From: a virus
Taxonomy: Duplodnaviria; Heunggongvirae; Uroviricota; Caudoviricetes
IMG/VR virus record: IMGVR_UViG_2529293038_000029
Strand: one strand, 5' to 3'
Length of the DNA stretch: 11,345 nucleotides
Shown here: positions 1-11,345 of the stretch, in pieces
Layout: each line of letters begins with the position of its first letter
Position numbering within the stretch: the first letter of the stretch is position 1
The notes under the pieces: model-generated
What the model was told of the DNA's origin: nothing
Database searches by the model: none
Seen by the model: only the letters and a program-made list of their open reading frames with translations
Made by a program: the position numbers and the translations under genes

Positions 1-228
1 AGCGTGATCAGGTGTTTCATACTCCTGCCCAGTCTGTCCAGCTTCCAGACAACCAGCGTATCTCCTTCTGTATAGCGTTCTGATCAGTTTTTTCAATCCC
101 GGTCTGGCTGATTTCGTTCCGCTGATTTTATCTTCAAAAATCAGTTCACATCCTGCGCACTCCAGCGCGTTACGCTGCAATTCTGTATTCTGGTCATTTG
201 TTGATACGCGGACATAGCCAATAAGCAT
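1..228 (-). pseudogene. Inverted 5' fragment of a second serine-invertase gene copy; frameshifted and truncated by the window edge
   Basis: Minus-strand ATG at 228..226 corresponds to the invertase start at 2276. The sequence matches the first ~76 codons of the intact copy, but a 1-nt insertion near position 70 (tgtata versus tgata) breaks the frame. The copy continues beyond the left edge. Confidence 0.7.
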
Positions 229-284
229 GATGGATCCCCTGAATAAAAACCGGGGATGATGCCAGTTAGCCATAATCTCTGCAG

Positions 285-310
285 TTCTTGATTACGTTGG
301 TTTGGGAGAA
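285..310. other. Left hix/gix-like recombination site of the invertible segment
   Basis: Read on the minus strand it is TTCTCCCAAACC-AA-CGTAATCAAGAA: 12-bp half-sites around an AA core. The inner half is identical to the right site and resembles hix/gix half-sites (TTCTTGAAAACC). It encodes the VGLGE junction of the plus-strand tail-fibre frame. Confidence 0.6.
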
Positions 311-829
311 GGTGCTCCAGCTATTGGCGTTCCGTTCTTCTGGCCGTCCGCCGCAATGCCAAATACTGTAATCGACAGTTGGTCCAGTATGGTGTTTTTG
401 AAGTTCAACGGCGCGAAATTCTCTGCCACTGATTACCCTGTGCTGGCGAAAGTGTTTCCGGCGCTAGCATTACCTGACGCACGGGGTGATTTCATTCGTA
501 TCTGGGATGATGGGCGCGGGATTGATGTCGGACGTACCCTACTTTCAGGGCAATCACACACAATTATGGATCATGCACACAATATGGAATTGTGGACGGG
601 GGGCGGGCTTGCTGCAGGAAGTGCACGGGAAGGAGTAACCCCAGGAATACTGGCTACATATGGTGACGGGGGAATAGTTAAAACGGACGAACCCGGTCTT
701 AAGGTGCCTTCCTCACTACGAGCTCTTAGCTCTCGTAGTGTTAAACGTTATGGTGAAATTAGTGGACATGTAGGTACAGAAACCCGTCCACGAAATATTG
801 CATTTAACTTTCTGGTGAGGGCTAAATAA
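302..829 (+). CDS. Tail-fibre C-terminal variable (receptor-binding) cassette; no constant N-terminal part in frame upstream
   Basis: Carries the phage tail-collar pattern (PFFWP, YP.L...FP....LPD.RG.F.R..D.GRG.D..R..GS.Q.H.H.H) and ends ...PRNIAFNFLVRAK like other tail-fibre tips. The frame is open from 260 across the recombination site but is stopped by TGA at 257..259; there is no ATG, so the track start at 302 is a TTG. Its stop overlaps the next start (TAATG). Confidence 0.7.
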   Translation: MGEGAPAIGVPFFWPSAAMPNTVIDSWSSMVFLKFNGAKFSATDYPVLAKVFPALALPDARGDFIRIWDDGRGIDVGRTLLSGQSHTIMDHAHNMELWTGGGLAAGSAREGVTPGILATYGDGGIVKTDEPGLKVPSSLRALSSRSVKRYGEISGHVGTETRPRNIAFNFLVRAK

Positions 830-1422
830 TGAAACCTGTTTTTGATGAAAATGGGCTGACTACAGTGCCGGGCGATATGCGTTGTTTTTATTATAATGCA
901 GTAACGTATGAATATACCGGCTGGTCTGATGAATATATTAATACTGGCGTAAGTATACCCGCCTGTTCCACTGGTATTGACCCGGGCGAAAACATTCCGG
1001 GAAAAGTGGCAGTATTTACGGGTAAGGGATGGAGCCATGAAGAAGACCATCGCAATGAGACCGTTTACTCAACTGAAAATGGCGCAGCTGTTACAGTGGA
1101 TTATATCGGTGCCATCAAAGACGGTTATGTCACGCTTTCACCGTTAACGCCATACGATAAATGGGATGGTGAGAAATGGGTGACGGATACCGAGGCACAG
1201 CATAGCGCCGCAGTAGAAGCGGCAGAAGCACAGCGCCAGTCGCTGATTGATGCAGCAATGGCTTCCATCAGTCTGATTCAACTGAAATTACAGGCTGAGC
1301 GGAAGCTGACGCAGCCAGAAAACACCCGACTTAACACTGTGCTGGATTACATTGACGCGGTGACGGCAACAGATACCAGCACAGCGCCGGACGTCATCTG
1401 GCCTGAACTGCCGGAGGCGTAG
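829..1422 (+). CDS. Tail-fibre assembly protein (Tfa, P2 G / Mu U-like)
   Basis: 197 aa, directly downstream of and translationally coupled to the fibre cassette. Has the conserved Tfa C-terminus (...TAPDVIWPELPEA). Confidence 0.8.
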   Translation: MKPVFDENGLTTVPGDMRCFYYNAVTYEYTGWSDEYINTGVSIPACSTGIDPGENIPGKVAVFTGKGWSHEEDHRNETVYSTENGAAVTVDYIGAIKDGYVTLSPLTPYDKWDGEKWVTDTEAQHSAAVEAAEAQRQSLIDAAMASISLIQLKLQAERKLTQPENTRLNTVLDYIDAVTATDTSTAPDVIWPELPEA

Positions 1423-1834
1423 GCCATTCAATATCTGGCGCACCGGAAGTATCGACCAGTTCCAGTGCGTCCAGATAATCCAGCCACAAATTATATTGCG
1501 CCAGTTCCTCACCTTTCAGCCGGCCAATAGCCGCTTTACCAGGCCATTGTTTACTGTTCATATAATCGTTGGCCTGATTAATCAGTTGCTGCTTTTCCAG
1601 TTCGGCTGCAGCAATCTGTTCCTCATGTGTTGGTGGTGGAATTTCAGACCATGCAGGAAAACCATTTTCTCCAGCGATACGGATTTTTCCTTTCGGCGGT
1701 AATCCGGAAAACTCAATATACACTTGCTCATCAACTTCAACAGCATCATCTGGCCATGAGTCAGCTTGAGTGTAATCCTCTTTCATCTCCAGCGGATAGA
1801 AAGAGTTTGTAGTCGCGGAATATATGTAATTCAT
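1394..1834 (-). CDS. Alternate tail-fibre assembly protein (Tfa', Mu U'-like)
   Basis: 146 aa with N-terminus MNYIYSATTNSFYP and C-terminus ...SGAPDIEWPTPPA, typical of the Tfa family. GGAG Shine-Dalgarno 7 nt upstream of the ATG at 1834. Convergent with, and overlapping, the plus-strand Tfa by 29 nt. Confidence 0.8.
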   Translation of the reverse strand: MNYIYSATTNSFYPLEMKEDYTQADSWPDDAVEVDEQVYIEFSGLPPKGKIRIAGENGFPAWSEIPPPTHEEQIAAAELEKQQLINQANDYMNSKQWPGKAAIGRLKGEELAQYNLWLDYLDALELVDTSGAPDIEWPTPPAVQAR

Positions 1835-1855
1835 TTTTCACTCCATATAGCTAAA

Positions 1856-2248
1856 TTAACAGCCTAACGCTAAAAATGAAGCGCCGAGGCCAGGAGTACT
1901 GGCTCTGGATATAAATTTAACCGGGTCGGGACTAAAACCTGCACAGGCAATATAACCAACAGACCCGCTATCTGGTGTGTAGTCTTGTGAAACCAAAACA
2001 CGCAGACATCTGTTTGGAAATGCAATCGGGAAATGGGTTACTACATCCTGTGCAATGCCTGGTGCGCCGATTGAGCCCCACTGAAGAATAAAACCTGATG
2101 GTAATTTTTGATATCCAGTACCTGAAACAGAAAGCGTGAAGCTACCCATATCAGGTATCTGATTCGTCCCTGTCCCCACATTCTTTTTTGCCGCTTCTCC
2201 CAAACCAACGTTTAAGAAAATGCAGAGATTATGGCTAACTGGCATCAT
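1856..2248 (-). CDS. Alternate tail-fibre C-terminal variable cassette (Sv'-like), promoterless in this configuration
   Basis: Minus-strand ORF immediately upstream of Tfa', reading through the right recombination site (encodes NVGLGE). Its apparent N-terminus (to 2248) is antisense to the invertase leader and is probably not a real start. I do not recognise the domain. Confidence 0.55.
2195..2220. other. Right hix/gix-like recombination site of the invertible segment
   Basis: TTCTCCCAAACC-AA-CGTTTAAGAAAA: imperfect dyad, 12 + 2 + 12 bp with an AA core, close to hixL (TTCTTGAAAACC AA GGTTTTTGATAA). Lies just upstream of the invertase gene. Confidence 0.65.
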
Positions 2249-2502
2249 CCCCGGTTTTTATTCAGGGGATCCATCATGCTTATTGGCTATGTCCGCGTAT
2301 CAACAAATGACCAGAATACAGAATTGCAGCGTAACGCGCTGGAGTGCGCAGGATGTGAACTGATTTTTGAAGATAAAATCAGCGGAACGAAATCAGCCAG
2401 ACCGGGATTGAAAAAACTGATCAGAACGCTATCAGAAGGAGATACGCTGGTTGTCTGGAAGCTGGACAGACTGGGCAGAAGTATGAAACACCTGATCACG
2501 CT
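2195..2502. repeat. Right arm of the long inverted repeat (recombination site, invertase leader and first ~76 codons)
   Basis: Reverse-complement identity with 1..310 as described for the left arm. Confidence 0.85.
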
Positions 2503-2875
2503 TATTGAGGAATTGCGGGAAAAAGGTGTTAATTTCCGTAGTCTGACGGACAGCATTGACACATCAACACCCATGGGGCGTTTCTTTTTTCACGTCATGG
2601 GGGCTTTAGCCGAAATGGAACGTGAATTAATTGTAGAGCGTACACTGGCCGGGCTGGCAGCAGCACGCGCACAAGGACGCATTGGCGGACGTCGCCCGAA
2701 GTTGACAAAAGAACAACACGAGCAAATAGCGAGGCTGATTAAAAACGGTCATGACAGGAAACAACTGGCGATCATTTACGACATCGGCATATCGACGATT
2801 TATCGTTATCACCCTGTAGGCGATATACAGGCTGAAGAAACAACCAGGCAGACTCAGGAAAATGAAAACCGCTAA
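2276..2875 (+). CDS. Site-specific DNA invertase, serine recombinase of the Gin/Hin/Pin/Cin (Din) family
   Basis: MLIGYVRVSTNDQ N-terminus with the catalytic serine in the VRVSTNDQ motif, a resolvase-type catalytic domain (GDTLVVWKLDRLGRS) and a C-terminal helix-turn-helix (RKQLAIIYDIGISTIYRY). Start taken at the ATG at 2276, which has an AGGGGA Shine-Dalgarno; the track ORF starts upstream at 2231. Product is 199 aa. Confidence 0.9.
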   Translation: MLIGYVRVSTNDQNTELQRNALECAGCELIFEDKISGTKSARPGLKKLIRTLSEGDTLVVWKLDRLGRSMKHLITLIEELREKGVNFRSLTDSIDTSTPMGRFFFHVMGALAEMERELIVERTLAGLAAARAQGRIGGRRPKLTKEQHEQIARLIKNGHDRKQLAIIYDIGISTIYRYHPVGDIQAEETTRQTQENENR

Positions 2876-2894
2876 TCTGACCATTAGCGGTTTT
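2866..2894. terminator. Bidirectional intrinsic terminator between the convergent invertase and U genes
   Basis: Perfect hairpin AAAACCGCTAAT-ctgacc-ATTAGCGGTTTT, with a T-tract on the plus strand and an A-tract (T-tract on the minus strand) on the other side. Overlaps the invertase stop codon (2873..2875). Confidence 0.6.
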
Positions 2895-2901
2895 GCGTTA
2901 A

Positions 2902-3396
2902 TCAAAACAGCCCTTTAACGGAGCTGGCCGCGCTGTTAAGGGATGATGTGACCTTATCTTTGAAGCCGGACAGCATATCACTGAACGATGAGGATTGCAG
3001 GCGCTCCCGCAAATCCTCATCACAGCGTTCAAGGGTCAGTGAAAATTCTATCTTTTTCGCCTTACCGTAGCGATCAAACTCGGAACGGGTCGTATTCGTT
3101 CCAGTCAGGACATACATGCCGTAAATCTGCCCGACGCCATCAATCAAAGGCCAGGGTCGTCCTGTATAAGCCTGCGTGGTCAGCAGCGACAGCGACACTT
3201 CGCCACCTGTAATTTCAGGATAAAGCACACCAGAAAGAACGATGCGATCATCACCTGCACCGATATACTGCCAGCTTGCTGAACGGTTAATGCGTTCATT
3301 TTTCACATGCCGCCAGCTTTTGTTTTGCTGTAACTGCTGATGCGGCAGCGTGCGCAGCTCAAAAACAAACATGCCGTAGATCATCATCATGGCCAT
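2902..3396 (-). CDS. U: Tail protein U (P2 gpU-like)
   Basis: 164 aa; the motif ...SWRH..NERINRSASWQY.G.....LSGV.YPEITGGE... matches P2 gpU. Immediately downstream of the tape measure gene. Confidence 0.8.
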   Translation of the reverse strand: MAMMMIYGMFVFELRTLPHQQLQQNKSWRHVKNERINRSASWQYIGAGDDRIVLSGVLYPEITGGEVSLSLLTTQAYTGRPWPLIDGVGQIYGMYVLTGTNTTRSEFDRYGKAKKIEFSLTLERCDEDLRERLQSSSFSDMLSGFKDKVTSSLNSAASSVKGLF

Positions 3397-3402
3397 GACT
3401 CC

Positions 3403-6246
3403 TCAATCTTTATCGTAAAAACTGCCACGCCCGGCACGGGCGCGCCGTTCCATTTCTGCCCTGACCATTTCACCGACCAGTTTCGCCAGTTCGCGGGGAT
3501 TCTGCGTAACAACGTTATGCAGATGAACATGAATTTCACCACCAAATTCGGAGGCAACAGGCTCCCGGTTACGGGAAGTTACAGGAACTGATGCCACTGG
3601 AGATCGTATAGCCTCCGCCACCGGGCGGGAGCTGGCCGCAACAACAGTGACCAGCGCCGGAGGCAGCGGAGCCGGAACCACAGGTGTGATATTAATTGCG
3701 GGGGCAGGCTTACTGACCTGCGCAATCTTCCGCTCCTGCCACTCCCCACGAACAGCAAGTGCCCGGGGCAGGTTTTTAAAGACAATATCGCCGGGGCCAA
3801 TGCGTTTTTTCGTCTCCTCAACCAGCTTACCTGTGTTATCAGCAATTTTGCTGAGTCTGCGCAGCGTACCGGTATTGCTGTCTGTGAGCGGTTTATTGTC
3901 TTTGGGGTTATCACCTCCGGTGCCATTGCCATTTTCCACAGGCTTCGGCGGATTGATTTTCGCCAGGTCCCCCTGAAGCAAGGCAACCTTGTCCTGAAGA
4001 ATGGCCGCACGCTGTGCGTCTTCGATTTTCTTGCGCGCCCTTTCCGCTTCATCCGGAAGCACACCAAGCTTTTCAAGTATCCACGCCAGCGTATCCAGCA
4101 ACATTTTTGCAGGTGTCAGAACAAGTTGTAACGCACCGCCAAGAACGTTACCGAATATCTCGCCAGCACTGGTACATTTATCCAGAGTTTCCTTGCTGGA
4201 CTCCATCGGTGACAGCAGCGATTTAAACCAGTTAAACACCTGGCTTATCCCGCTTCCGATTGCGTCAAAAACAGGACCAAACCGTTCAAAGGTTTCGCGC
4301 AACGGGGCCAGCCGCTCCATAATCCCACTGAACACCCCGGCAAAAAATGCCCTGATTGGGTCCCAGTATTTCCAGATAAGAATGGCAGCTCCGGCAAGCG
4401 CAGCCACGATAAGACCAACCGGACTGAACAGCGCCCCGATAGCGCCCCCCAGTAACGAAACGGAACCCGTCACCATTCCCCATAGTGCTGGCAGAACCCT
4501 GACAGCATTCATTGATCCGGTCAGGAGGGAAAAACCAAGACGCAGTTTTGCCAGCGGGCCAGCAAGCACACCAATAGCCAGCGACAACGAGCCAACCGTT
4601 GCAGTCATTGCCAGCAGTGCACCGCCTGCAATCAGTAGCTGGCGCGTCAGTGCGGGATGGGCCTGCGCCAGCGCCGTCACCTTTGATACCACACGCGTGA
4701 GCCACTGCGTGACAGAACGCAGCGGACCGTCAATCAGATCTGCAATGCGGATGCGCAACCCTTCCCATGCACTGCTGAGTGATTTCAGATCGCCGTCAAG
4801 GTTGTTGGCCATAACCTTTGCCGTGCGTTCAGCCTCACCGCGCGCGCCTTCAAGTTCTTTTCTCAGTTTGGGTAAGGAGCCGTCACCTGCCGCATCAACG
4901 AGGGCCATAAATGATGTGAAAGCCTCTTCTCCGGCAATGTCCTTAAAGAACGATACCCGGTCAACTTCCCCGTATTTGCGGGTAGCTTTATAAAGGTCAG
5001 CCAGCACATCCTCCATCGGGCGCATTTTGCCCCCGGCATCCGAGACAGACACGCCAAGCTCTTTCAGCGCCTCTGCTGCCGCCTTTGGCGGTGATGCCAG
5101 ACGAGCCAGGCTGGCACGCATTGCCGTACCAGCATCACTCCCCCTGATACCCATATTCGCCAGCACGCCCGCCATCGCTGCGGCCTGCTCCAGCGATATT
5201 CCCAGCTTACCCGCCACCGGACCTGCATATTTCATGGTTTCACCCAGTGCGCGAAGGTCAGTGTTGGTACGGGTAAACGCTGCGGTGAGTGTGTCGCCGA
5301 CCCGGTCCATCTGGTCAGCAGAAAGACCGAACTGCGTCAGAATATTTGAGCCAATATCCGCCGTCTCACCGAGGTCCATACCGCCAGCCGTTGCCATGCT
5401 CAGTACGCCAGGGAGCGCAGCCTGAATGGCCTGTGGTGTGAAGCCAGCCATTGCAAGAAATGCCTGCCCACTGGCGGCATCGCCTGCGGTGAACTGCGTT
5501 TCAGAGCCAAGTTTTAACGCCTGCTCACGCAGCGCCTTAAACTGCGGGCTGTTTTTGTCGATTCGCGTCAGTGCCTGAACGCGGGACATCTCTTTCCCGA
5601 ACCCGATCGCAGGCTGCAAAAAACGCCCGGCAGCATAGCCGCCCGCCGCTGCCGCACCAATTGCCAGCGCACCACCTGTTTTCAGTTTTCCCGCTGTTTC
5701 CTGCGCGCGCGAATACCGCTCACGCGCCTGCGTTACACGCGCAAGCGCCTGCCGTTCGCGTTCAAGCTGGTTGTTGTACTGTTCGGTGCGTCTGATGGCC
5801 TGCTGGATGGTGTTATCGCTGCCTGTCAGGGAAATGCCGTGGCGTTTCAGCTCTCCGCCAATCTCCCGCATTTTCTGAATTTCCCGTGTGCGCGATTCAT
5901 TCAGGCGTTCAAGCCGGGTGCTTAACTGCTGCATCAGCTTTTGTTGTTTTTCGCTGAGCACTGTACCCGTGCGTTGTAACTGATTAAGGGCGTTAAGCTG
6001 GCGTCGTGCTTTCACGATACCCGCATCCGCTTTACTGACAGCGTCGCGGGCGCGCTCAAATGAACGCGCCTGACGCTCGAGATTTTTGATCGCCCCCTGC
6101 GTTCGCTGGATGGAGTCACCAAACTGCCCCATCAGGCGGCGGGCGTTTTCGGCAGGCCGGGTCAGCCTGTCAACGGCGCTGAAAGCGACCCGGATATCAA
6201 GAGTCTTCATTGTCTGCATTCCCGCTGCGAAGTGCCGCCCGCTCAC
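3403..6246 (-). CDS. T: Tail tape measure protein (P2 gpT-like)
   Basis: 947 aa with a coiled-coil N-terminus, a central glycine/alanine-rich hydrophobic region and tape-measure core motifs. Sits between E/E' and U. The start is uncertain: GTG at 6246, or ATG at 6219 or 6210. Confidence 0.85.
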   Translation of the reverse strand: MSGRHFAAGMQTMKTLDIRVAFSAVDRLTRPAENARRLMGQFGDSIQRTQGAIKNLERQARSFERARDAVSKADAGIVKARRQLNALNQLQRTGTVLSEKQQKLMQQLSTRLERLNESRTREIQKMREIGGELKRHGISLTGSDNTIQQAIRRTEQYNNQLERERQALARVTQARERYSRAQETAGKLKTGGALAIGAAAAGGYAAGRFLQPAIGFGKEMSRVQALTRIDKNSPQFKALREQALKLGSETQFTAGDAASGQAFLAMAGFTPQAIQAALPGVLSMATAGGMDLGETADIGSNILTQFGLSADQMDRVGDTLTAAFTRTNTDLRALGETMKYAGPVAGKLGISLEQAAAMAGVLANMGIRGSDAGTAMRASLARLASPPKAAAEALKELGVSVSDAGGKMRPMEDVLADLYKATRKYGEVDRVSFFKDIAGEEAFTSFMALVDAAGDGSLPKLRKELEGARGEAERTAKVMANNLDGDLKSLSSAWEGLRIRIADLIDGPLRSVTQWLTRVVSKVTALAQAHPALTRQLLIAGGALLAMTATVGSLSLAIGVLAGPLAKLRLGFSLLTGSMNAVRVLPALWGMVTGSVSLLGGAIGALFSPVGLIVAALAGAAILIWKYWDPIRAFFAGVFSGIMERLAPLRETFERFGPVFDAIGSGISQVFNWFKSLLSPMESSKETLDKCTSAGEIFGNVLGGALQLVLTPAKMLLDTLAWILEKLGVLPDEAERARKKIEDAQRAAILQDKVALLQGDLAKINPPKPVENGNGTGGDNPKDNKPLTDSNTGTLRRLSKIADNTGKLVEETKKRIGPGDIVFKNLPRALAVRGEWQERKIAQVSKPAPAINITPVVPAPLPPALVTVVAASSRPVAEAIRSPVASVPVTSRNREPVASEFGGEIHVHLHNVVTQNPRELAKLVGEMVRAEMERRARAGRGSFYDKD

Positions 6247-6726
6247 GCCAGCTAACCACTTCGCCGGGCGTCATCATGAAGATTTCGGCGGGCGACCAGT
6301 TAAAAATAACGGCAATATCTGCCACAAAGTCTTCTATGTGCTCAAAGCACACAACCGTGATCAGGCTTCCGTCGCCTGTTCGTTCTTCCCGCCAGAGTCC
6401 GCACCGCTCAAAAAATTTACGGCAACCACACATAACTGAATAAAGTCACGGGATGCCATTTTTTTGATCGTCACTTCATCCAGTCGCGGTGATGTCACGC
6501 GTGACAGCAGCGTAAACATGGATTCCGCTTTCAGATTCAGCACATCAGACAGCGACAAATCTCGCAGAGATCCAGCCTGCTCAATAGCCCCGGTGATCTC
6601 CACATACGTGATTTTTTCGCCGCCTCGCTCAATTGGTTGGGTAAGTTTTACGCCACGCTCACTGGTTTCTTTCACAGTGTCAGCAACTACCGTGTTTTCG
6701 GTATCGATGTTTTTCGTCTCTTTCAT
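6197..6726 (-). CDS. E+E' fusion chaperone, made by a programmed -1 ribosomal frameshift
   Basis: The -1 frame after the slippery site stays open to the stop at 6197..6199 and overlaps the start of T, as in P2 E/E'. Predicted fusion is about 176 aa. Confidence 0.6.
6361..6726 (-). CDS. E: Tail assembly chaperone E (P2 gpE-like), zero-frame product
   Basis: 121-aa ORF between FII and T, with a GGAG Shine-Dalgarno upstream of the ATG at 6726. Contains the slippery heptamer T_TTT_TTG spanning codons 104-106. Confidence 0.7.
   Translation of the reverse strand: MKETKNIDTENTVVADTVKETSERGVKLTQPIERGGEKITYVEITGAIEQAGSLRDLSLSDVLNLKAESMFTLLSRVTSPRLDEVTIKKMASRDFIQLCVVAVNFLSGADSGGKNEQATEA
6409..6415 (-). 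other. Programmed -1 frameshift slippery heptamer TTTTTTG (E to E+E')
   Basis: Plus strand reads CAAAAAA at 6409..6415, which is T TTT TTG on the coding strand in the correct register (AAT TTT TTG). Identical to the P2 E/E' shift site. Confidence 0.7.
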
Positions 6727-6780
6727 CAGGAAACTCCTTTCAGTCAGAGGCGACGCACTGCGCCGCCTGCATATTACTTA

Positions 6781-7293
6781 TCAGCCAAGCCCAAGCGCGG
6801 AACGGATGCGATCGGGCACAATGTCCTTGCCGTCCTTCCGGTAAATGAAGTTCAGCAGGTCAATCTCCCACAGCGGGCGATCGTTAACGCTCAGCTTGTA
6901 GTAGGTGTTTTTAATGGCGTAAGAGTGTGATGTGGCTTCGCCCTGTTTGGCTTCCCCCATATCAATTTCCGTCACACGTCCGCGCATTTCGACTTCATAC
7001 AGGTCGCTTTCTGCATCGGTGTAGTATTCACCCGCAAAACGCAGCAGCGTGCCGTCAATCGTGCCGCCATACTTAAGGAACAGCTCACGAACTGCGCCCC
7101 CCATGACAAAGCTCGCATCAAGCGCGGAGTCGTCCAGACCGAGATCAATACTTACCGCACCCATCATGCCACCACCCCGGTAGCTGTCGGTTTTGCGCGT
7201 CAGCTTAGGCAGAGTGACGGACGTCACCTTACCCACTTCGTTTTCACCATCCACAAACAGCGTAAAAAAGCGAAGATGTTTTGGCACAGCCAT
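6781..7293 (-). CDS. FII: Major tail tube protein (P2 gpFII-like)
   Basis: 170 aa; motifs VTLPKLTRK..YRG.GM.G, DLGLDD, RFAG.Y, MRGR..EID.GE.KQGE match P2 FII. GGGAGG Shine-Dalgarno; the start overlaps the FI stop (TGATG). Confidence 0.88.
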   Translation of the reverse strand: MAVPKHLRFFTLFVDGENEVGKVTSVTLPKLTRKTDSYRGGGMMGAVSIDLGLDDSALDASFVMGGAVRELFLKYGGTIDGTLLRFAGEYYTDAESDLYEVEMRGRVTEIDMGEAKQGEATSHSYAIKNTYYKLSVNDRPLWEIDLLNFIYRKDGKDIVPDRIRSALGLG

Positions 7294-8477
7294 CAGGCAC
7301 CTCCCAGCACCGCAAATGCGGGTTCAAAGTATTCATCAGTAAACGTCTGGTAAAGCTCCATATCTTCCAGCGGGGGAACAGGCGTATATTTGTAGCGAAT
7401 ACGCACACGCCCCTGACGTAAATCCGTGGTGCTGTTATCCACCACGTCATACCAGCACTCCGCGCCAATCAGTTTCCCGGCAGTAACCAGTGAATCCAGT
7501 TTTGCCCTGATGGCACTGATAACATCCTTCACGTTCGCAGGCGTCAGTGGACTGTCGATGGTTTCAAACTGCGCTTCCGCAATTGAATCAGCCAACACCT
7601 GTGCGGTTCGGGTATACACCTCAAAGATGTAGGCGTTCGTTTCCGGTGTGCGGTTGCCCCAGAAGCGGAACCCGTTGCGACGAATAATGGTCGTGATTTC
7701 TTTGTTGTTGAGGCTGTTGGCATCACTGTCTTCGGCCTGCAACGACCAGAACACATGCCTGGACATCCCCAGCACATTTTTAACCGGAACGTTGGACAGC
7801 GATTTGTGCCAGCCCTGTTCATGGTCAATGTACGCACGGAGGCCGCACGCATAGGCAGGCGCGGGGAACGTTTCGTTTTTGCCACTTTTGGGGTTGTAGG
7901 CGATGAAGTCCGGCCATAAGAGCATCACCTCACGTTCGTTGAATTTCTGGCGGTAGGTAATCGCCTCAGCCATCGTGTTACAGCCGTGACATGAGGCATA
8001 CACAAACGCGCGCAGTTTACCTGCAATCACGCACAGGGATTTTGTTACAGCCTCCGTGTCCAGCTCCGGCGCGGCCAGAATACGCGGACGGTATCCGATG
8101 CTTTCATCCTGCTCTGCAACAAGCAGCGCATACATCCCCGTATAGCTGCCGTCATCCTCAGAACCACCGATAACCAGTTGATCCTGCGTCTTTCCGTCTT
8201 CTTCTTTGTGTTCAGCCACGCGAACGACGATCACCTTTGTGCTCACCTGGTCTGCAATGGCCTTAAGCGCACGATAAAGCGTCCCCGTTGTCCCGCATTT
8301 TCCCAGCACGTCATTGACGCGGGTCAGCAGTGTGGGCTTGTTCAGCGGGAACAGCTTCGCGTCCGCATCATCCGCCGTTGCCACGATACCGATAACGCTG
8401 GAATCAACATCGTTAATCGCTGTTACCAGGTCGGTATTTTCCGTAACACGGGCACCATGAAAACGAGTTTCACTCAT
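7293..8477 (-). CDS. FI: Contractile tail sheath protein (P2 gpFI-like)
   Basis: 394 aa; motifs DADA..FPLNKP, KLRAF, YRQ.F..RE.M..WPDF, DHEQGWHKSLSNV, FRFWGNRT, YTRTAQV.AD, YKYTPVPPLE match P2 FI. Confidence 0.88.
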   Translation of the reverse strand: MSETRFHGARVTENTDLVTAINDVDSSVIGIVATADDADAKLFPLNKPTLLTRVNDVLGKCGTTGTLYRALKAIADQVSTKVIVVRVAEHKEEDGKTQDQLVIGGSEDDGSYTGMYALLVAEQDESIGYRPRILAAPELDTEAVTKSLCVIAGKLRAFVYASCHGCNTMAEAITYRQKFNEREVMLLWPDFIAYNPKSGKNETFPAPAYACGLRAYIDHEQGWHKSLSNVPVKNVLGMSRHVFWSLQAEDSDANSLNNKEITTIIRRNGFRFWGNRTPETNAYIFEVYTRTAQVLADSIAEAQFETIDSPLTPANVKDVISAIRAKLDSLVTAGKLIGAECWYDVVDNSTTDLRQGRVRIRYKYTPVPPLEDMELYQTFTDEYFEPAFAVLGGA

Positions 8478-8634
8478 AGCTTCAGCCCCTTGTATCCGTT
8501 AAATGATTCGGCAACAATCATCACCCACCACGCGCGTAATCTCACCCCTGCGCCGTTCTCCCGACCCGGCGACAACAAAAAGCAGTAACCCCCTCCGCAC
8601 GCACATGCGACCATGCCGCACAGGGAGGGAACAG

Positions 8635-9744
8635 ATGACCGACACCACCATGCAATTGCTCAGTCAGGGCACAGACCCCGTGAAAATGCCGGATTTTGAT
8701 ATTCTTGCGGAGGGTAAAACGCTGTCAGGCGTGGCAGAGCGCCTGATGAGCCTGTCACTGACCGACAACCGGGGATTTGAGGCGGACCAGCTCACCATCA
8801 CGCTGGATGATGCGGATGGTCAGTTGCAGCTACCGCCACGGGGCGCGCGCCTGACGGTTCTCATTGGCTGGAAAGGAGAACCGCTGACAGAAAAAGGCAC
8901 TTACATTGTTGATGAAATCGCTCACGAAGGACCGCCGGACAGGCTGACTGTTTCAGCCAGAAGCGCAGATTTTCGGGATGAATTTAACGTTAAACGTGAG
9001 GTGTCCTGGCATGATGTGACCCTTGAGCGTGTGGTATCCGCCATCGCTCATCGGTATGGTCTGAAACCACAAATCAGCGAAATGCTGATGGATATCGAAA
9101 TCGACCACGCCGACCAGACCGAAGAAAGCGACATGTCCTTCCTTACGCGCATGGCGGAAATGCTGGGCGCAATCACCACGGTAAAAAGCGGTAATCTGTT
9201 ATTCATCATGCCAGGCGGTGGCGTGAACGCACAGGGCCAGCCGTTGCCCTCGTTCGCCATCACGCGCAGCAGTGGCGATCGCCATCAGTTCCGCATTGCT
9301 GACCGCGAAGCGTATACGGGGGTACGCGCTTACTGGCTTGATCTTAATTACGGGAAAAAGAAAAAAGTCAGCGTGAAACGCCGCAAACCGCCAAAACCCA
9401 AAAAGGAGAAAAGCAGCAGCCGTGAAGGTGATTATATGGAAGGCGCAGAAGGCAATGTGTTTGTGTTACGCAAGACTTATCAGAACGAACAGGCAGCAAG
9501 ACGCGCAGCGGCGGCAAAGTGGCAGCAGCTACAACGCGGAGCCGCAGCGTTCTCCATCACACTGGCACGTGGACGCGCAGAACTCTACCCCGAAATGCAT
9601 GGCACGGTAACAGGATTTAAAAGCGAAATTGATAATCAGGACTGGATTATTGCAAAAGCCGAGCACACCATTGATAACAGTGGCTTTACCACGCAGCTTG
9701 AGCTTGAAGCCAAAATCCCGGAATGGATAGCAGAAACAGAGTAA
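8635..9744 (+). CDS. D: Tail protein D (P2 gpD, late control gene D family)
   Basis: About 369 aa with Phage_GPD-like N-terminal motifs (DFDILAEGKTLSG, LSLTDNRGFEADQLTITLDD). Start placed at the ATG at 8635 because of the strong GGGAGGG Shine-Dalgarno; the track ORF begins upstream at 8503. Transcribed divergently from FI. Confidence 0.8.
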   Translation: MTDTTMQLLSQGTDPVKMPDFDILAEGKTLSGVAERLMSLSLTDNRGFEADQLTITLDDADGQLQLPPRGARLTVLIGWKGEPLTEKGTYIVDEIAHEGPPDRLTVSARSADFRDEFNVKREVSWHDVTLERVVSAIAHRYGLKPQISEMLMDIEIDHADQTEESDMSFLTRMAEMLGAITTVKSGNLLFIMPGGGVNAQGQPLPSFAITRSSGDRHQFRIADREAYTGVRAYWLDLNYGKKKKVSVKRRKPPKPKKEKSSSREGDYMEGAEGNVFVLRKTYQNEQAARRAAAAKWQQLQRGAAAFSITLARGRAELYPEMHGTVTGFKSEIDNQDWIIAKAEHTIDNSGFTTQLELEAKIPEWIAETE

Positions 9745-9938
9745 ACAACTTAGATGCATTAGCCCTGACATTTGCTAACGCGCTTACAGCAAGAATCATA
9801 ACCAATCTGACAGCCTACCCGGTGTCAAAATCAGAAGAGCCTTACATTAGAATATGTTAATTTGTAGCAAACAAATTTACACACAAATGATTACTGCTGA
9901 AATAGCCCCCATAAATACCATGTCAAAGGATCCATGTT

Positions 9939-10604
9939 ATGAATATGCAAATTTTTATCGCACCAGCAGCCACAGTTGCTGCAGTCTGCCTTGCTGCATA
10001 TTTTGCTTTACGAAATGAACGTAAAAAGAAAGCACTTGAGATTAGAACAACTCAACTAGATCGAATATCAGAGCTAGTAAACCGAGCATCTACCAATTTG
10101 ATGCAATATACAGGTACTCTTGCCTCTATACTGGAAGCGCACGCCAAAGATAATTATCTACCGAACAAAAAATTTGACATTAATGTAATTAGCAAATGGA
10201 AAGATTGCCTCGATGAGAGTGAGGTCTGGGCGATTGATAGACAGCAACTAAGAACATGTCAGCACAGTCTGGAGTTTCATCGTGAAAAAGAATGGGCTGA
10301 ATGGAAAAAAATAATTCCACCATTACTTGATAAAATTGACCAATTTTTTCTCATATCTAAGCCAGGGCAACCTGTTACGTTTATAAATGGCCAAAACAAA
10401 ACAGCTGATGAACTACTTGTTTTCTCAAGATATTTGAGAAAACAAACAGCAGAAATTGAATCAGTACGTCAGCTGTTACTTTCTCAAATGAGAGAGGAAT
10501 TCATCGAGTTAACTAGCTTTGAACCTGTCACAATGTTTAGCTTATTTAAATCAATAAAGAAAAATGTCATGCAATTTTTCTGTATCAGTGCTCTTAAAAA
10601 TTGA
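9939..10604 (+). CDS. Hypothetical membrane-anchored protein: one N-terminal transmembrane helix plus about 190 aa soluble domain; AT-rich cargo gene
   Basis: 221-aa ORF with AAGGA Shine-Dalgarno 8 nt upstream. Hydrophobic N-terminus (IFIAPAATVAAVCLAAYFAL) followed by a K/E-rich domain I do not recognise. Visibly lower GC than the flanking phage genes. Confidence 0.6.
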   Translation: MNMQIFIAPAATVAAVCLAAYFALRNERKKKALEIRTTQLDRISELVNRASTNLMQYTGTLASILEAHAKDNYLPNKKFDINVISKWKDCLDESEVWAIDRQQLRTCQHSLEFHREKEWAEWKKIIPPLLDKIDQFFLISKPGQPVTFINGQNKTADELLVFSRYLRKQTAEIESVRQLLLSQMREEFIELTSFEPVTMFSLFKSIKKNVMQFFCISALKN

Positions 10605-10619
10605 CGCTCTGTTGCAAGC

Positions 10620-10650
10620 AACCCCAGTGTTAAACTGGGGTTATTCTTGC
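10620..10650 (+). terminator. Intrinsic terminator downstream of the AT-rich ORF
   Basis: 9-bp perfect stem AACCCCAGT-gttaa-ACTGGGGTT followed by a T-rich tract (TATTCTTG). Confidence 0.55.
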
Positions 10651-10753
10651 TAAGAGACCTTTCTACGGCATCAGTAAACAAAACGAACTATCAGTTGGAG
10701 TCTGAGCAAGTTCAGCCTAAACTAGCGACAGCACTACGTTAAGGGAGGTCGCT

Positions 10754-11014
10754 ATGTTCCGTTGTCCGCTTTGTGGCGCATCTGCCCGTATCCGCACCAG
10801 TCGTCCGGAAAATGATTCAAACACCGTGCGGCAAAAGTATTACCAGTGTAACAACCTGGAATGCGGCGTATGCTTCTCAACACTGGAAGCTTTCCATAAA
10901 TTCACATCGAAACACGCCTCCGGCATCCACTCTTCAGAAGATATCCCGTGGCATGAGCTGCCAGCTTCACACAGGGGAAACAATCAGATGAGCTTGCCTT
11001 TACCTCAGAATTAA
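10754..11014 (+). CDS. ogr: Ogr/Delta-family zinc-finger late transcription activator
   Basis: MFRCPLCGASARIRTSR...YYQCNNLECGVCFSTLE matches P2 Ogr (MFHCPLCQHAAHARTSR...YHQCQNVNC..F.T.E), with a Cys-x2-Cys ... Cys-x4-Cys zinc-binding pattern. GGGAGG Shine-Dalgarno. 86 aa, longer than P2 Ogr at the C-terminus. Confidence 0.88.
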   Translation: MFRCPLCGASARIRTSRPENDSNTVRQKYYQCNNLECGVCFSTLEAFHKFTSKHASGIHSSEDIPWHELPASHRGNNQMSLPLPQN

Positions 11015-11074
11015 CAGGCAGAATTGCCGGAGTAACAAAAAAGCGATAGATTACGCGCGGGTGCCTTTCGGCTG

Positions 11075-11287
11075 ATGGTCGGAGGGAATACCCGAAGGCC
11101 AGATGTGGAAAGGCCCCGGAAAACATCTCTGTTTAACCGAGGCCCTAACCGCATTACCTTGACAAGTGAAAGGTTAGCGCCTCTCCGGAAAAGGAGCAAG
11201 TGCTATGTCGCAAAAATCGCTTACGGCCATCACGTTCTGCGTGACGGCAATCCTCATCATCTGGATGTTGCACGGTTCGCTGTGTGA
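11075..11287 (+). CDS. mok-like overlapping reading frame of a hok-type locus (tentative)
   Basis: 70-aa ORF in a different frame, starting about 130 nt upstream of the hok-like gene and overlapping it, as mok does in hok/sok loci. Assigned by position and length only. Confidence 0.35.
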   Translation: MVGGNTRRPDVERPRKTSLFNRGPNRITLTSERLAPLRKRSKCYVAKIAYGHHVLRDGNPHHLDVARFAV

Positions 11288-11345
11288 AATACGGATGAGC
11301 TTCTGGGGAGCGGAGTTTGCGGCGTTCTTACAGTGTAAGCAGTAA
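11205..11345 (+). CDS. hok: Hok/Gef-family type I toxin (small membrane peptide)
   Basis: 46 aa, MSQKSLTAITFCVTAILIIWMLHGSLCEIRMSFWGAEFAAFLQCKQ: an N-terminal transmembrane segment then the family signature SLCEIR ... E.AAF (compare Hok [22 protein letters not shown] and HokA ...AAFLACK). AGGAG Shine-Dalgarno 7 nt upstream. The stop codon is the last 3 nt of the window. Confidence 0.75.
   Translation: MSQKSLTAITFCVTAILIIWMLHGSLCEIRMSFWGAEFAAFLQCKQ

Follow-up and report, generated by a model that had tools for sequence, protein, structure and literature searches.

The G segment of phage Mu combines a constant fibre N-terminus with two alternative C-termini and their chaperones; the invertase Gin is encoded just outside the segment, and its 26-bp sites share a 2-bp core. 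The C segment of P1, with the invertase Cin, is of the same type. In the P segment of e14, served by the invertase PinE, a tip gene and a tfa gene are followed by a tfa gene and a tip gene on the other strand. P2-like prophages of EPEC E2348/69 also carry invertible tail-fibre loci, with Hin-homologue invertases; sequencing and PCR showed both orientations of these loci to coexist in ordinary cultures, as they do for e14 (Goldberg et al. 2014, PMC4272514).

We analyzed a window of 11,345 nucleotides (the whole stretch of DNA under study), which corresponds to bases 1-11345 of draft contig AIFB01000033.1 of assembly GCA_000249195, window position 1 being contig position 1. We consider it quite probable that the locus is a host-range switch of a P88-like prophage and, jointly, that the left arm of the window is a chimera formed at the contig end. 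A Pin/Gin-type switch at this locus is already known in kind, and many E. coli genomes carry the cassette in annotated form. Biologically, little is thus added to what is textbook material on fibre switches of this type.

The invertase and its crossover sites

A serine DNA invertase of 199 amino acids is encoded on the plus strand at 2276..2875. Homology supports the start at 2276: the protein begins MLIGYVRVSTNDQ, which aligns residue for residue with both PinE of e14 (82% identity overall) and Gin of Mu (73%). The catalytic serine is residue 10 (YVRVSTNDQ), within an N-terminal catalytic domain (Pfam Resolvase, 9e-52) that is followed by a C-terminal helix-turn-helix (HTH_7, 1e-12), which is the plan of the small serine recombinases of about 190 residues. 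The closest relatives of solved structure are the Gin structures 4M6F and 3UJ3 (best PDB match, 2.5e-91). By its sequence, the enzyme is a Pin-type member of the Din family (Hin/Gin/Cin/Pin), and the serine invertase with a VRVSTNDQ motif that the first-pass annotation had placed beside the segment is thereby confirmed. We infer that it is active in this strain.

Inversion would also require Fis and an enhancer. When the sequence was scanned for an enhancer with two Fis sites, one convincing core emerged, a second one at the expected spacing not being clearly found. This candidate Fis-like 15-bp core, GAAGATAAAATCAGC, lies on the plus strand at 2369..2383, in invertase codons 32-36. It has the form G-N13-C with an A/T-rich centre, at a codon position common to the window, pinE and gin; it may tentatively be regarded as part of an enhancer.

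Two 26-bp crossover sites flank the cassette in inverted orientation, with the 12-2-12 layout and the shared TT/AA core expected of Din-family sites. The right site, at 2195..2220, reads TTCTCCCAAACC-AA-CGTTTAAGAAAA. When the sites were aligned to known crossover sites, a check proposed in the earlier annotation, it matched e14 pixR (TTCTCCCAAACC AA CGTTTATGAAAA) at 25 of 26 bases. The left site, at 285..310, reads TTCTTGATTACG-TT-GGTTTGGGAGAA and has a hybrid outer half, to which we return below. The inner half-site and core are identical to those of both pix sites of e14, whereas the fibre-side outer half-site is CTCTCGAAAACC in e14 and TTCTTGATTACC here. The gix sites, as they stand in the Mu genome sequence, also have the 12-2-12 layout, but with another core and other half-sites (TTATCCAAAACC TC GGTTTACAGGAA), and the segment of Mu is 3 kb long. 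The window contains exactly two copies of the 16-mer TTCTCCCAAACCAACG, one per strand; shuffled sequences had 0.01 on average, and none of 200 shuffles reached two. The perfect inverted repeat extends over 18 nt (294-311 and 2194-2211) and takes in no more than the inner half, the core and a few adjacent bases. The outer halves of the left and right sites are unlike each other, as is usual for crossover sites of this kind.

Cassette genes and orientation in related prophages

The invertible segment (297..2208; 1,912 nt) extends from one core dinucleotide to the other, TT in the left site and AA in the right one. As the first-pass annotation had described, two convergent pairs, each of a fibre tip and a Tfa protein, lie between the sites. 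Tip A (296..829, plus strand; ORF 302-829) is one of two alternative C-terminal parts for fibre protein H, with 177 codons from the motif VGLGE onward and neither a start codon nor a constant part of its own. It is followed on the same strand by tfaA (829..1422), which encodes the assembly chaperone for tip A (Pfam Caudo_TAP, 9e-27; 61% identical to TfaE of e14). On the minus strand, tfaB (1394..1834; Caudo_TAP, 8e-38; 60% identical to TfaP), the chaperone gene for tip B, is convergent with tfaA; the two overlap by 29 nt, exactly as do the convergent tfa genes of e14. Tip B (1856..2209, minus strand, the right end being approximate) is the other alternative C-terminal part of H and has 117 codons from VGLGE.

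A tail-collar domain had been proposed for tip A, and a profile search gave a divided answer: the match to Pfam Collar (PF07484), over residues 33-67, stays below threshold (18.8 bits, cut-off 24; E = 0.0016), but PHROG 523 'tail collar fiber protein' matches at 6e-49, and PHROG 3100 matches at 1e-50. For tip B, the match to Pfam Gp53-like_C (PF21882) covers the entire profile above threshold (57.3 bits, cut-off 24.9; 2e-15). An NCBIfam search of the two tips matched neither, and an Rfam search of the window returned no match. The layout of the cassette is that of e14, and StfE, TfaE, TfaP and StfP have homologs here gene for gene (29-61% identity). The tips themselves, in contrast, are just 43% (tip A to StfE) and 29% (tip B to StfP) identical to those of e14, so their receptor specificities probably differ from those of e14. 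Against Mu proteins, only TfaB shows a weak similarity (to U', 32%), no other pair being matched.

In the mechanism we propose, the Pin-type invertase would bind the two inverted pix-like sites, cut both at the central TT/AA and flip the segment between them. Since fibre gene H contains the upstream site, inversion would join the constant 382-residue N-terminal part, which ends in LDYLGLGE, to either tip. One orientation would yield the constant part with the tail-collar-like tip A, then TfaA, and the other the constant part with tip B and its Gp53-like C-terminal domain, then TfaB. Particles would thus end up with one of two receptor-binding tips, and these two tips may recognize different receptors.

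Related prophages carry the segment both ways round. Among eight contigs with an identical TfaA, four have one orientation and four the other, and the point of exchange is exactly the central TT. In these relatives, which are strains other than the one studied here, the outer half-sites never change flank: GTTCTTGATTACC stays with H and TTTTCTTAAACG with the invertase, and the right site of the window is kept beside the invertase in all of them. Their H proteins, of 554 or 494 residues, share 382 identical N-terminal residues and then continue into tip A or tip B. Tip A is fused to the 382-residue constant part in one relative (L003), and tip B is identical to the C-terminus of the 494-residue H protein of another (L004); a constant part joined in frame to a tip is found in L001, L003 to L006, L008 and L009. 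The Din-family invertase, the layout of the sites and the two orientations in relatives together bear out the earlier proposal of an invertible fibre switch of the Gin/Hin type with hix-like 26-bp sites.

One might argue that the inverted repeats are a by-product of diverged convergent tip genes sharing the VGLGE motif, with no site-specific inversion at all, as the repeat does encode the same peptide on both strands. That near-identical prophages have the segment both ways, with breakpoints exactly at the core, contradicts this argument; in addition, a Pin orthologue adjoins the segment, and the right site is nearly identical to e14 pixR, for which inversion was shown experimentally (PMC4272514). 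We regard such a by-product as extremely improbable.

The cores are also visible as assembly breaks. Several short-read assemblies break precisely at both of them, and one Logan contig (L012) is exactly window positions 297-2208. Eight of the 17 size-binned blocks for the protein contain solely contigs shorter than 2 kb.

The left end of the contig

The window itself differs from its relatives to the left of the segment. The constant fibre part is absent from the window as written, and invertase sequence is present to the left and to the right of the segment. Upstream of each tip lies invertase-leader sequence, in which the tip's frame runs into a stop codon at most about 20 codons before VGLGE. 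The first-pass annotation had placed the sites where the fibre reading frames cross, as in the Mu G segment; this holds in relatives, where the sites coincide precisely with the LGLGE junction in the fibre frame. The window as written has no constant part to be joined there. The same annotation overlooked both this absence and the inverted invertase copy at the left flank.

This copy occupies the start of the contig (1..283, minus strand) and comprises the invertase leader and the first 76 codons. Bases 1-286 repeat positions 2218-2502 in inverted orientation. Identity is 100% over 215 nt (to 2218-2432) and 99% over 70 nt beyond a 1-nt indel; position 71 has an additional T, and the outermost 70 nt contain one C/T mismatch. 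At the left site, the outer half is of the fibre-gene type, while the invertase-flank type is seen at position 296 (G) and in all bases to the left of 284. The resulting hybrid junction is represented by the sequences ATCTCTGCAGTTCTTGATTACGTTGGTTTGGGAG and ATCTCTGCAGTTCTTGATTACGTTGG. It is absent from the GTDB representative genomes, IMG/VR and the JGI metagenomes, as well as from 5,426 complete E. coli genomes, where the best full-length match to window positions 236-335 (94.1%) is the canonical invertase-side junction.

We read the left arm as most likely a consensus chimera at the contig end, assembled from reads of a culture containing both orientations and thus recording the other one. 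This reading rests on the position of the arm at the start of the contig, on the confinement of the differences between the two copies to the outermost 71 nt, on the uniqueness of the junction, and on a sister assembly that differs by three mismatches in 7,126 nt and whose contig starts with normal H sequence, 286 nt upstream of the corresponding site. We accordingly attribute the missing constant fibre part to the contig end: the true genome would have one invertase gene, with H on another contig. The mixed cultures that this supposes are of the kind described for the prophages of E2348/69, which are likewise P2-like prophages of pathogenic E. coli; one locus there is a three-site shufflon, whereas two sites are present here. 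E2348/69 was not found among the best cassette matches listed.

A simple inversion artefact was rejected as the complete explanation, as it predicts TTTTCTTAAACG at the left junction where the window has GTTCTTGATTACG. A plain mixture of orientations would give the invertase flank, TTTTCTTAAACG, TTGG and tip A in succession; the window has instead a 12-nt half-site of the fibre type (GTTCTTGATTAC) before the core. With these 12 nt between invertase flank and core, a chimeric contig end requires a column-wise consensus of two read populations. The indel and the mismatch in the left copy could also be true divergence between two real copies.

The arm might then be real: through an aberrant rearrangement, an inverted partial duplicate of the invertase, comprising its leader and 5' coding region, would have replaced the constant part of H, leaving an orphan cassette with invertase sequence on both sides. 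The deposited contig itself does read as a double-invertase flank, its two invertase copies do differ by one indel and one mismatch, and a junction that keeps a fibre-type outer half-site is no simple inversion product. We nevertheless find this unlikely, given that the arm is confined to the start of a draft contig (its first 296 nt), that the differences between copies stay at its very edge, that the near-identical sister assembly has a normal H at the same place, and that the junction is seen in no other genome or contig across four collections. To our knowledge, serine invertases exchange DNA at the 2-bp core, and a hybrid outer half-site is beyond their chemistry; a real arm would therefore need a separate illegitimate event at the exact edge of the 26-bp site. 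Were it real, the cassette could still flip, both sites being intact, but it would make no fibre and the prophage would be defective. It would then represent a rearrangement product of an undescribed kind at a Din site, an inverted partial duplication ending exactly at the outer site edge, and the segment left behind would flip without any expressed output.

Another reading is that the contig is a mis-join of two prophages, both carrying the 1.9-kb cassette in one genome; one might have the true P2 order seen in relative L002 and the other be P88-like. Different backbones do share the cassette at about 99% identity, with homology stopping exactly at the sites, and many E. coli genomes have several matching places (median 2, up to 12). 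The left-arm invertase sequence, however, is 100% identical to the right copy over 215 nt, whereas the invertase flank of L002 differs at several bases within the 50 nt beside the site. A second prophage also leaves the fusion of a fibre-type half-site to the invertase flank unexplained, and the hybrid junction occurs in none of the complete genomes. We consider a mis-join very unlikely; if it had occurred, the contig would be uninformative on inversion within a single prophage. The one indirect sign of both orientations in the culture of this strain is that its contig joins the invertase flank to either end of the segment.

If the left arm is a chimeric contig end, as we believe, it has a practical consequence for assemblies: segments that flip in culture can produce spurious inverted duplications or chimeric contig ends. 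Contigs may also break exactly at the crossover cores, and such breaks can serve as a cheap sign of an active switch.

A P88-like backbone and a travelling cassette

From about position 2270 to 11345, the window is 95-96% identical in nucleotide sequence to phage P88 and other Xuanwuvirus (P88, 96.2% over 72% of the window; Xuanwuvirus P884B11, 95.5%). Judged from these alignments, the backbone is that of a P88-like (Xuanwuvirus, Peduoviridae) P2-type E. coli prophage, of which the window covers only the tail end of the genome. The first-pass annotation had likened the architecture to that of Fels-2-like phages. A P2-type prophage it is, but the closest relatives are P88-like Xuanwuvirus for the backbone and e14 for the Pin/pix system, not specifically Fels-2: no Fels-2 record is among the 15 best phage matches listed, and Salmonella accounts for 3 of the 243 phage records with a match. 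The locus also differs from e14, a lambdoid remnant, in that the myovirus tail module to which it is attached is P88-like and apparently complete.

The gene order in E. coli prophages is the same: H, the segment, the invertase, U-T-E-FII-FI on the other strand, D and ogr. P88 and other Xuanwuvirus share this order from the invertase onward. A large rearrangement had been suspected from the orientation of the FI-to-U block opposite to D and ogr; this was rejected, such being the normal P88-like order.

P88 has no match to the cassette, its alignment starting at 2265; P88 thus carries different tips. The segment is found at 98.4-99.6% identity in nine complete E. coli genomes, in each of which the alignment stops precisely at both borders. 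This illustrates that the 1.9-kb cassette travels as a unit among different backbones of P2 type, homology being lost precisely at the crossover sites. A further difference from P88 is an extra 1-kb insert of low GC content between D and ogr.

Invertible cassette, crossover sites and invertase

A perfect 18-nt inverted repeat (294-311/2194-2211) borders a cassette of four ORFs lying between 285 and 2220 as two convergent gene pairs. Two 26-bp sites have this repeat as their inner portion, TTCTTGATTACG-TT-GGTTTGGGAGAA on the left (285-310) and TTCTCCCAAACC-AA-CGTTTAAGAAAA on the right (2195-2220). Apart from these two sites, one per strand, the window has no copy of the 16-mer TTCTCCCAAACCAACG (0.01 occurrences expected), which confirms the invertible cassette described in the first-pass annotation. 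Its reading of the locus as a Din-type fibre switch is supported in substance by PinE/Gin homology, pix-like sites and the occurrence of both orientations in relatives. The alignment to known crossover sites, using reference sites taken straight from the Mu and K-12 genome sequences, also bears it out: the right site matches e14 pixR (TTCTCCCAAACC AA CGTTTATGAAAA) at 25 of 26 bases, and the core plus inner half, TT GGTTTGGGAGAA, is shared without change by the two e14 pix sites. The gix sites of Mu follow the 12-2-12 layout too but differ in sequence.

The serine recombinase gene adjoining the cassette starts, by homology, at 2276 (MLIGYVRVSTNDQ) rather than at the ATG upstream (2231). Pfam assigns Resolvase and HTH_7 domains to the protein, which shares 82% identity with PinE of e14 and 73% with Gin of Mu; its closest solved structures are those of Gin (4M6F and 3UJ3). 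Invertase codons 32-36 contain one conserved Fis-like core, a second core not being clear; inversion presumably requires Fis and an enhancer. A terminator-like hairpin and T run (AACTGGCATCATCCCCGGTT TTTATTCAGG; 2237-2256, plus strand) lies between the right site and the invertase start codon, with a mirror copy at 248-267 (minus strand). It is a consensus match only and might stop read-through of the fibre operon ahead of the invertase gene.

On the plus strand, tipA (302-829, frame open from VGLGE at 296) is followed by tfaA (829-1422); tfaB (1394-1834) and tipB (1856 to about 2209) lie on the minus strand. Pfam matches of both Tfa proteins to Caudo_TAP and of tipB to Gp53-like_C are all above threshold. 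As to the tail-collar character proposed earlier for tipA, Pfam Collar scores 18.8 bits, below the cut-off of 24, but matches to PHROG families of fibre C-termini are strong, one being named 'tail collar fiber protein'. The unrelated folds indicated by family assignment suggest that the two tips have different receptor specificities. e14 carries homologues of the four cassette proteins in the same order, StfE, TfaE, TfaP and StfP (43%, 61%, 60% and 29% identity). The convergent tfa genes overlap at their 3' ends by 29 nt (1394-1422), the same length as the e14 tfaP/tfaE overlap (3518-3546 of the e14 reference, L014). An inverted repeat at 1341-1358/1467-1484 reflects a C-terminal motif, LDYIDA/LDYLDA, shared on opposite strands. 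The locus is an ordinary Pin/pix-type invertible tail-fibre segment in a common E. coli prophage lineage; the kind of switch is already known, and annotations of it exist in many genomes.

Segment orientation in related prophages

Contigs encoding exactly the window's TfaA, from near-identical prophages, include both segment states. Four of them (L001, L003, L008 and L010) have the fibre junction H...GGGA-GTTCTTGATTACC-TTGGTTTGGGAGAA-tipA, H being the fibre gene, and the other junction reads invertase flank...TGCA-TTTTCTTAAACG-TTGGTTTGGGAGAA-tipB. L004, L005, L006 and L009 carry the tips the other way round, and the outer half-sites stay with their own flanks, as predicted by exchange at the central TT. 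The sites lie at the fibre frame junction in these relatives: L003 and L004 encode H proteins of 554 aa and 494 aa, respectively, that share their first 382 residues, up to and including LDYLGLGE, and then continue into tipA or tipB. In the case of e14 and of P2-like EPEC prophages, both orientations have been shown experimentally to coexist in ordinary cultures (PMC4272514). The invertase is probably active in the window's own strain as well.

The cassette is found on contigs shorter than 2 kb in many assemblies, the pattern expected if reads attach both flanks to each end. One short-read contig of 1,912 nt (L012, Logan SRR30942577) equals window 297-2208 exactly. Both L011 and L012 match the invertible segment exactly and end at the central dinucleotides of the two sites. 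Such graph-breaking at cores could serve to flag active invertible segments in draft assemblies.

An inverted copy of invertase sequence in the left arm as assembled

Positions 1-286, absent from the first-pass annotation, are an inverted copy of 2218-2502 (the invertase leader and first 76 codons), so that the segment as written is flanked by invertase sequence left and right and lacks a constant fibre part. A stop codon lies within about 20 codons upstream of VGLGE in each tip frame. The copies are 100% identical over 215 nt, the only differences being an additional T at position 71 and a single C/T difference further out. A hybrid sequence forms the left junction: invertase flank as far as ...TCTGCA, followed by 12 nt of fibre-type outer half-site (GTTCTTGATTAC), a G of the invertase-side type and the core. 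We found no such junction in 5,426 complete E. coli genomes (best match 94.1%), nor in GTDB representatives, IMG/VR or JGI metagenomes. Because L007 is identical to the window, the latter corresponds to bases 1-11,345 of the draft contig AIFB01000033.1, and the anomaly thus falls in the contig's first 296 bases. A sister assembly contig, AIFD01000023.1 (L008), shows 3 mismatches across the 7,126 nt past the site; it begins 286 nt upstream of that site, and its sequence there is that of normal H.

We infer, with good confidence, that the left arm is an assembly artefact at the contig end, which is the most likely origin of the double-invertase flank. A culture of mixed orientation would yield two sets of reads, with tipA joined to H in one and to the invertase flank in the other. 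If a contig end were assembled from the two sets together, it could have fibre-type bases in its first dozen columns and invertase-type bases further out. The two errors within the outermost 71 nt are consistent with the thin coverage of a contig end. Serine invertases exchange DNA at the 2-bp core and cannot by themselves produce an outer half-site of hybrid type. For an inverted partial duplication to be real, a further, illegitimate event would therefore have had to fall precisely on the site edge, and we consider such a duplication unlikely. That the contig mis-joins two prophages is more improbable still. If the left arm is an artefact, it is an incidental record of switching in the sequenced culture.

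Prophage backbone and cassette exchange

A P2-type tail module fills the remainder of the window. Its minus-strand genes are U (2902-3396), tape measure (3403-6246), E/E', tube (6781-7293) and sheath (7293-8477); D (to 9744) and ogr (10754-11014) are encoded on the plus strand. Identity to P88-like phages (Xuanwuvirus) is 95-96% between about 2270 and the window end. Given this identity and the gene order, the prophage is P88-like rather than specifically Fels-2-like, the architecture named earlier. The gene order looks rearranged next to that of P2 but is normal for P88-like phages and annotated E. coli prophages.

Nine complete genomes carry the cassette at 98.4-99.6% identity, with homology ending exactly at both cores. 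In one of these, E. coli CE0021a (L002), a 99.6% identical cassette lies in a prophage of classical P2 order (H, segment, invertase and FI-FII-E-T on one strand). Since the cassette occurs on both P2-order (L002) and P88-like (L001, L003) backbones, with homology stopping at the sites, sequence comparison suggests that it passes between phage backbones as one unit.

A GpE-family ORF (6197-6325, minus strand) is called as 42 aa in L007 and L008 and as 51 aa in L003, L004 and L006, a discrepancy that may stem from a different start site or a frameshift within the E/E' region. Rfam detects no Sok or other RNA family in the window at the gathering threshold; the match to L001 stops, at about 11205-11345, where a Hok/Gef-family toxin gene is annotated immediately beyond ogr. 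Between gpD and ogr, an insert (about 9750-10750) forms a low-GC stretch (36%) of about 1 kb with a 221-aa ORF (9939-10604, plus strand) that has no match in Pfam, PHROG, NCBIfam or PADLOC. L001 lacks the insert at this position, its D gene ending 43 nt before ogr, and the ORF looks like a putative cargo (moron) gene.
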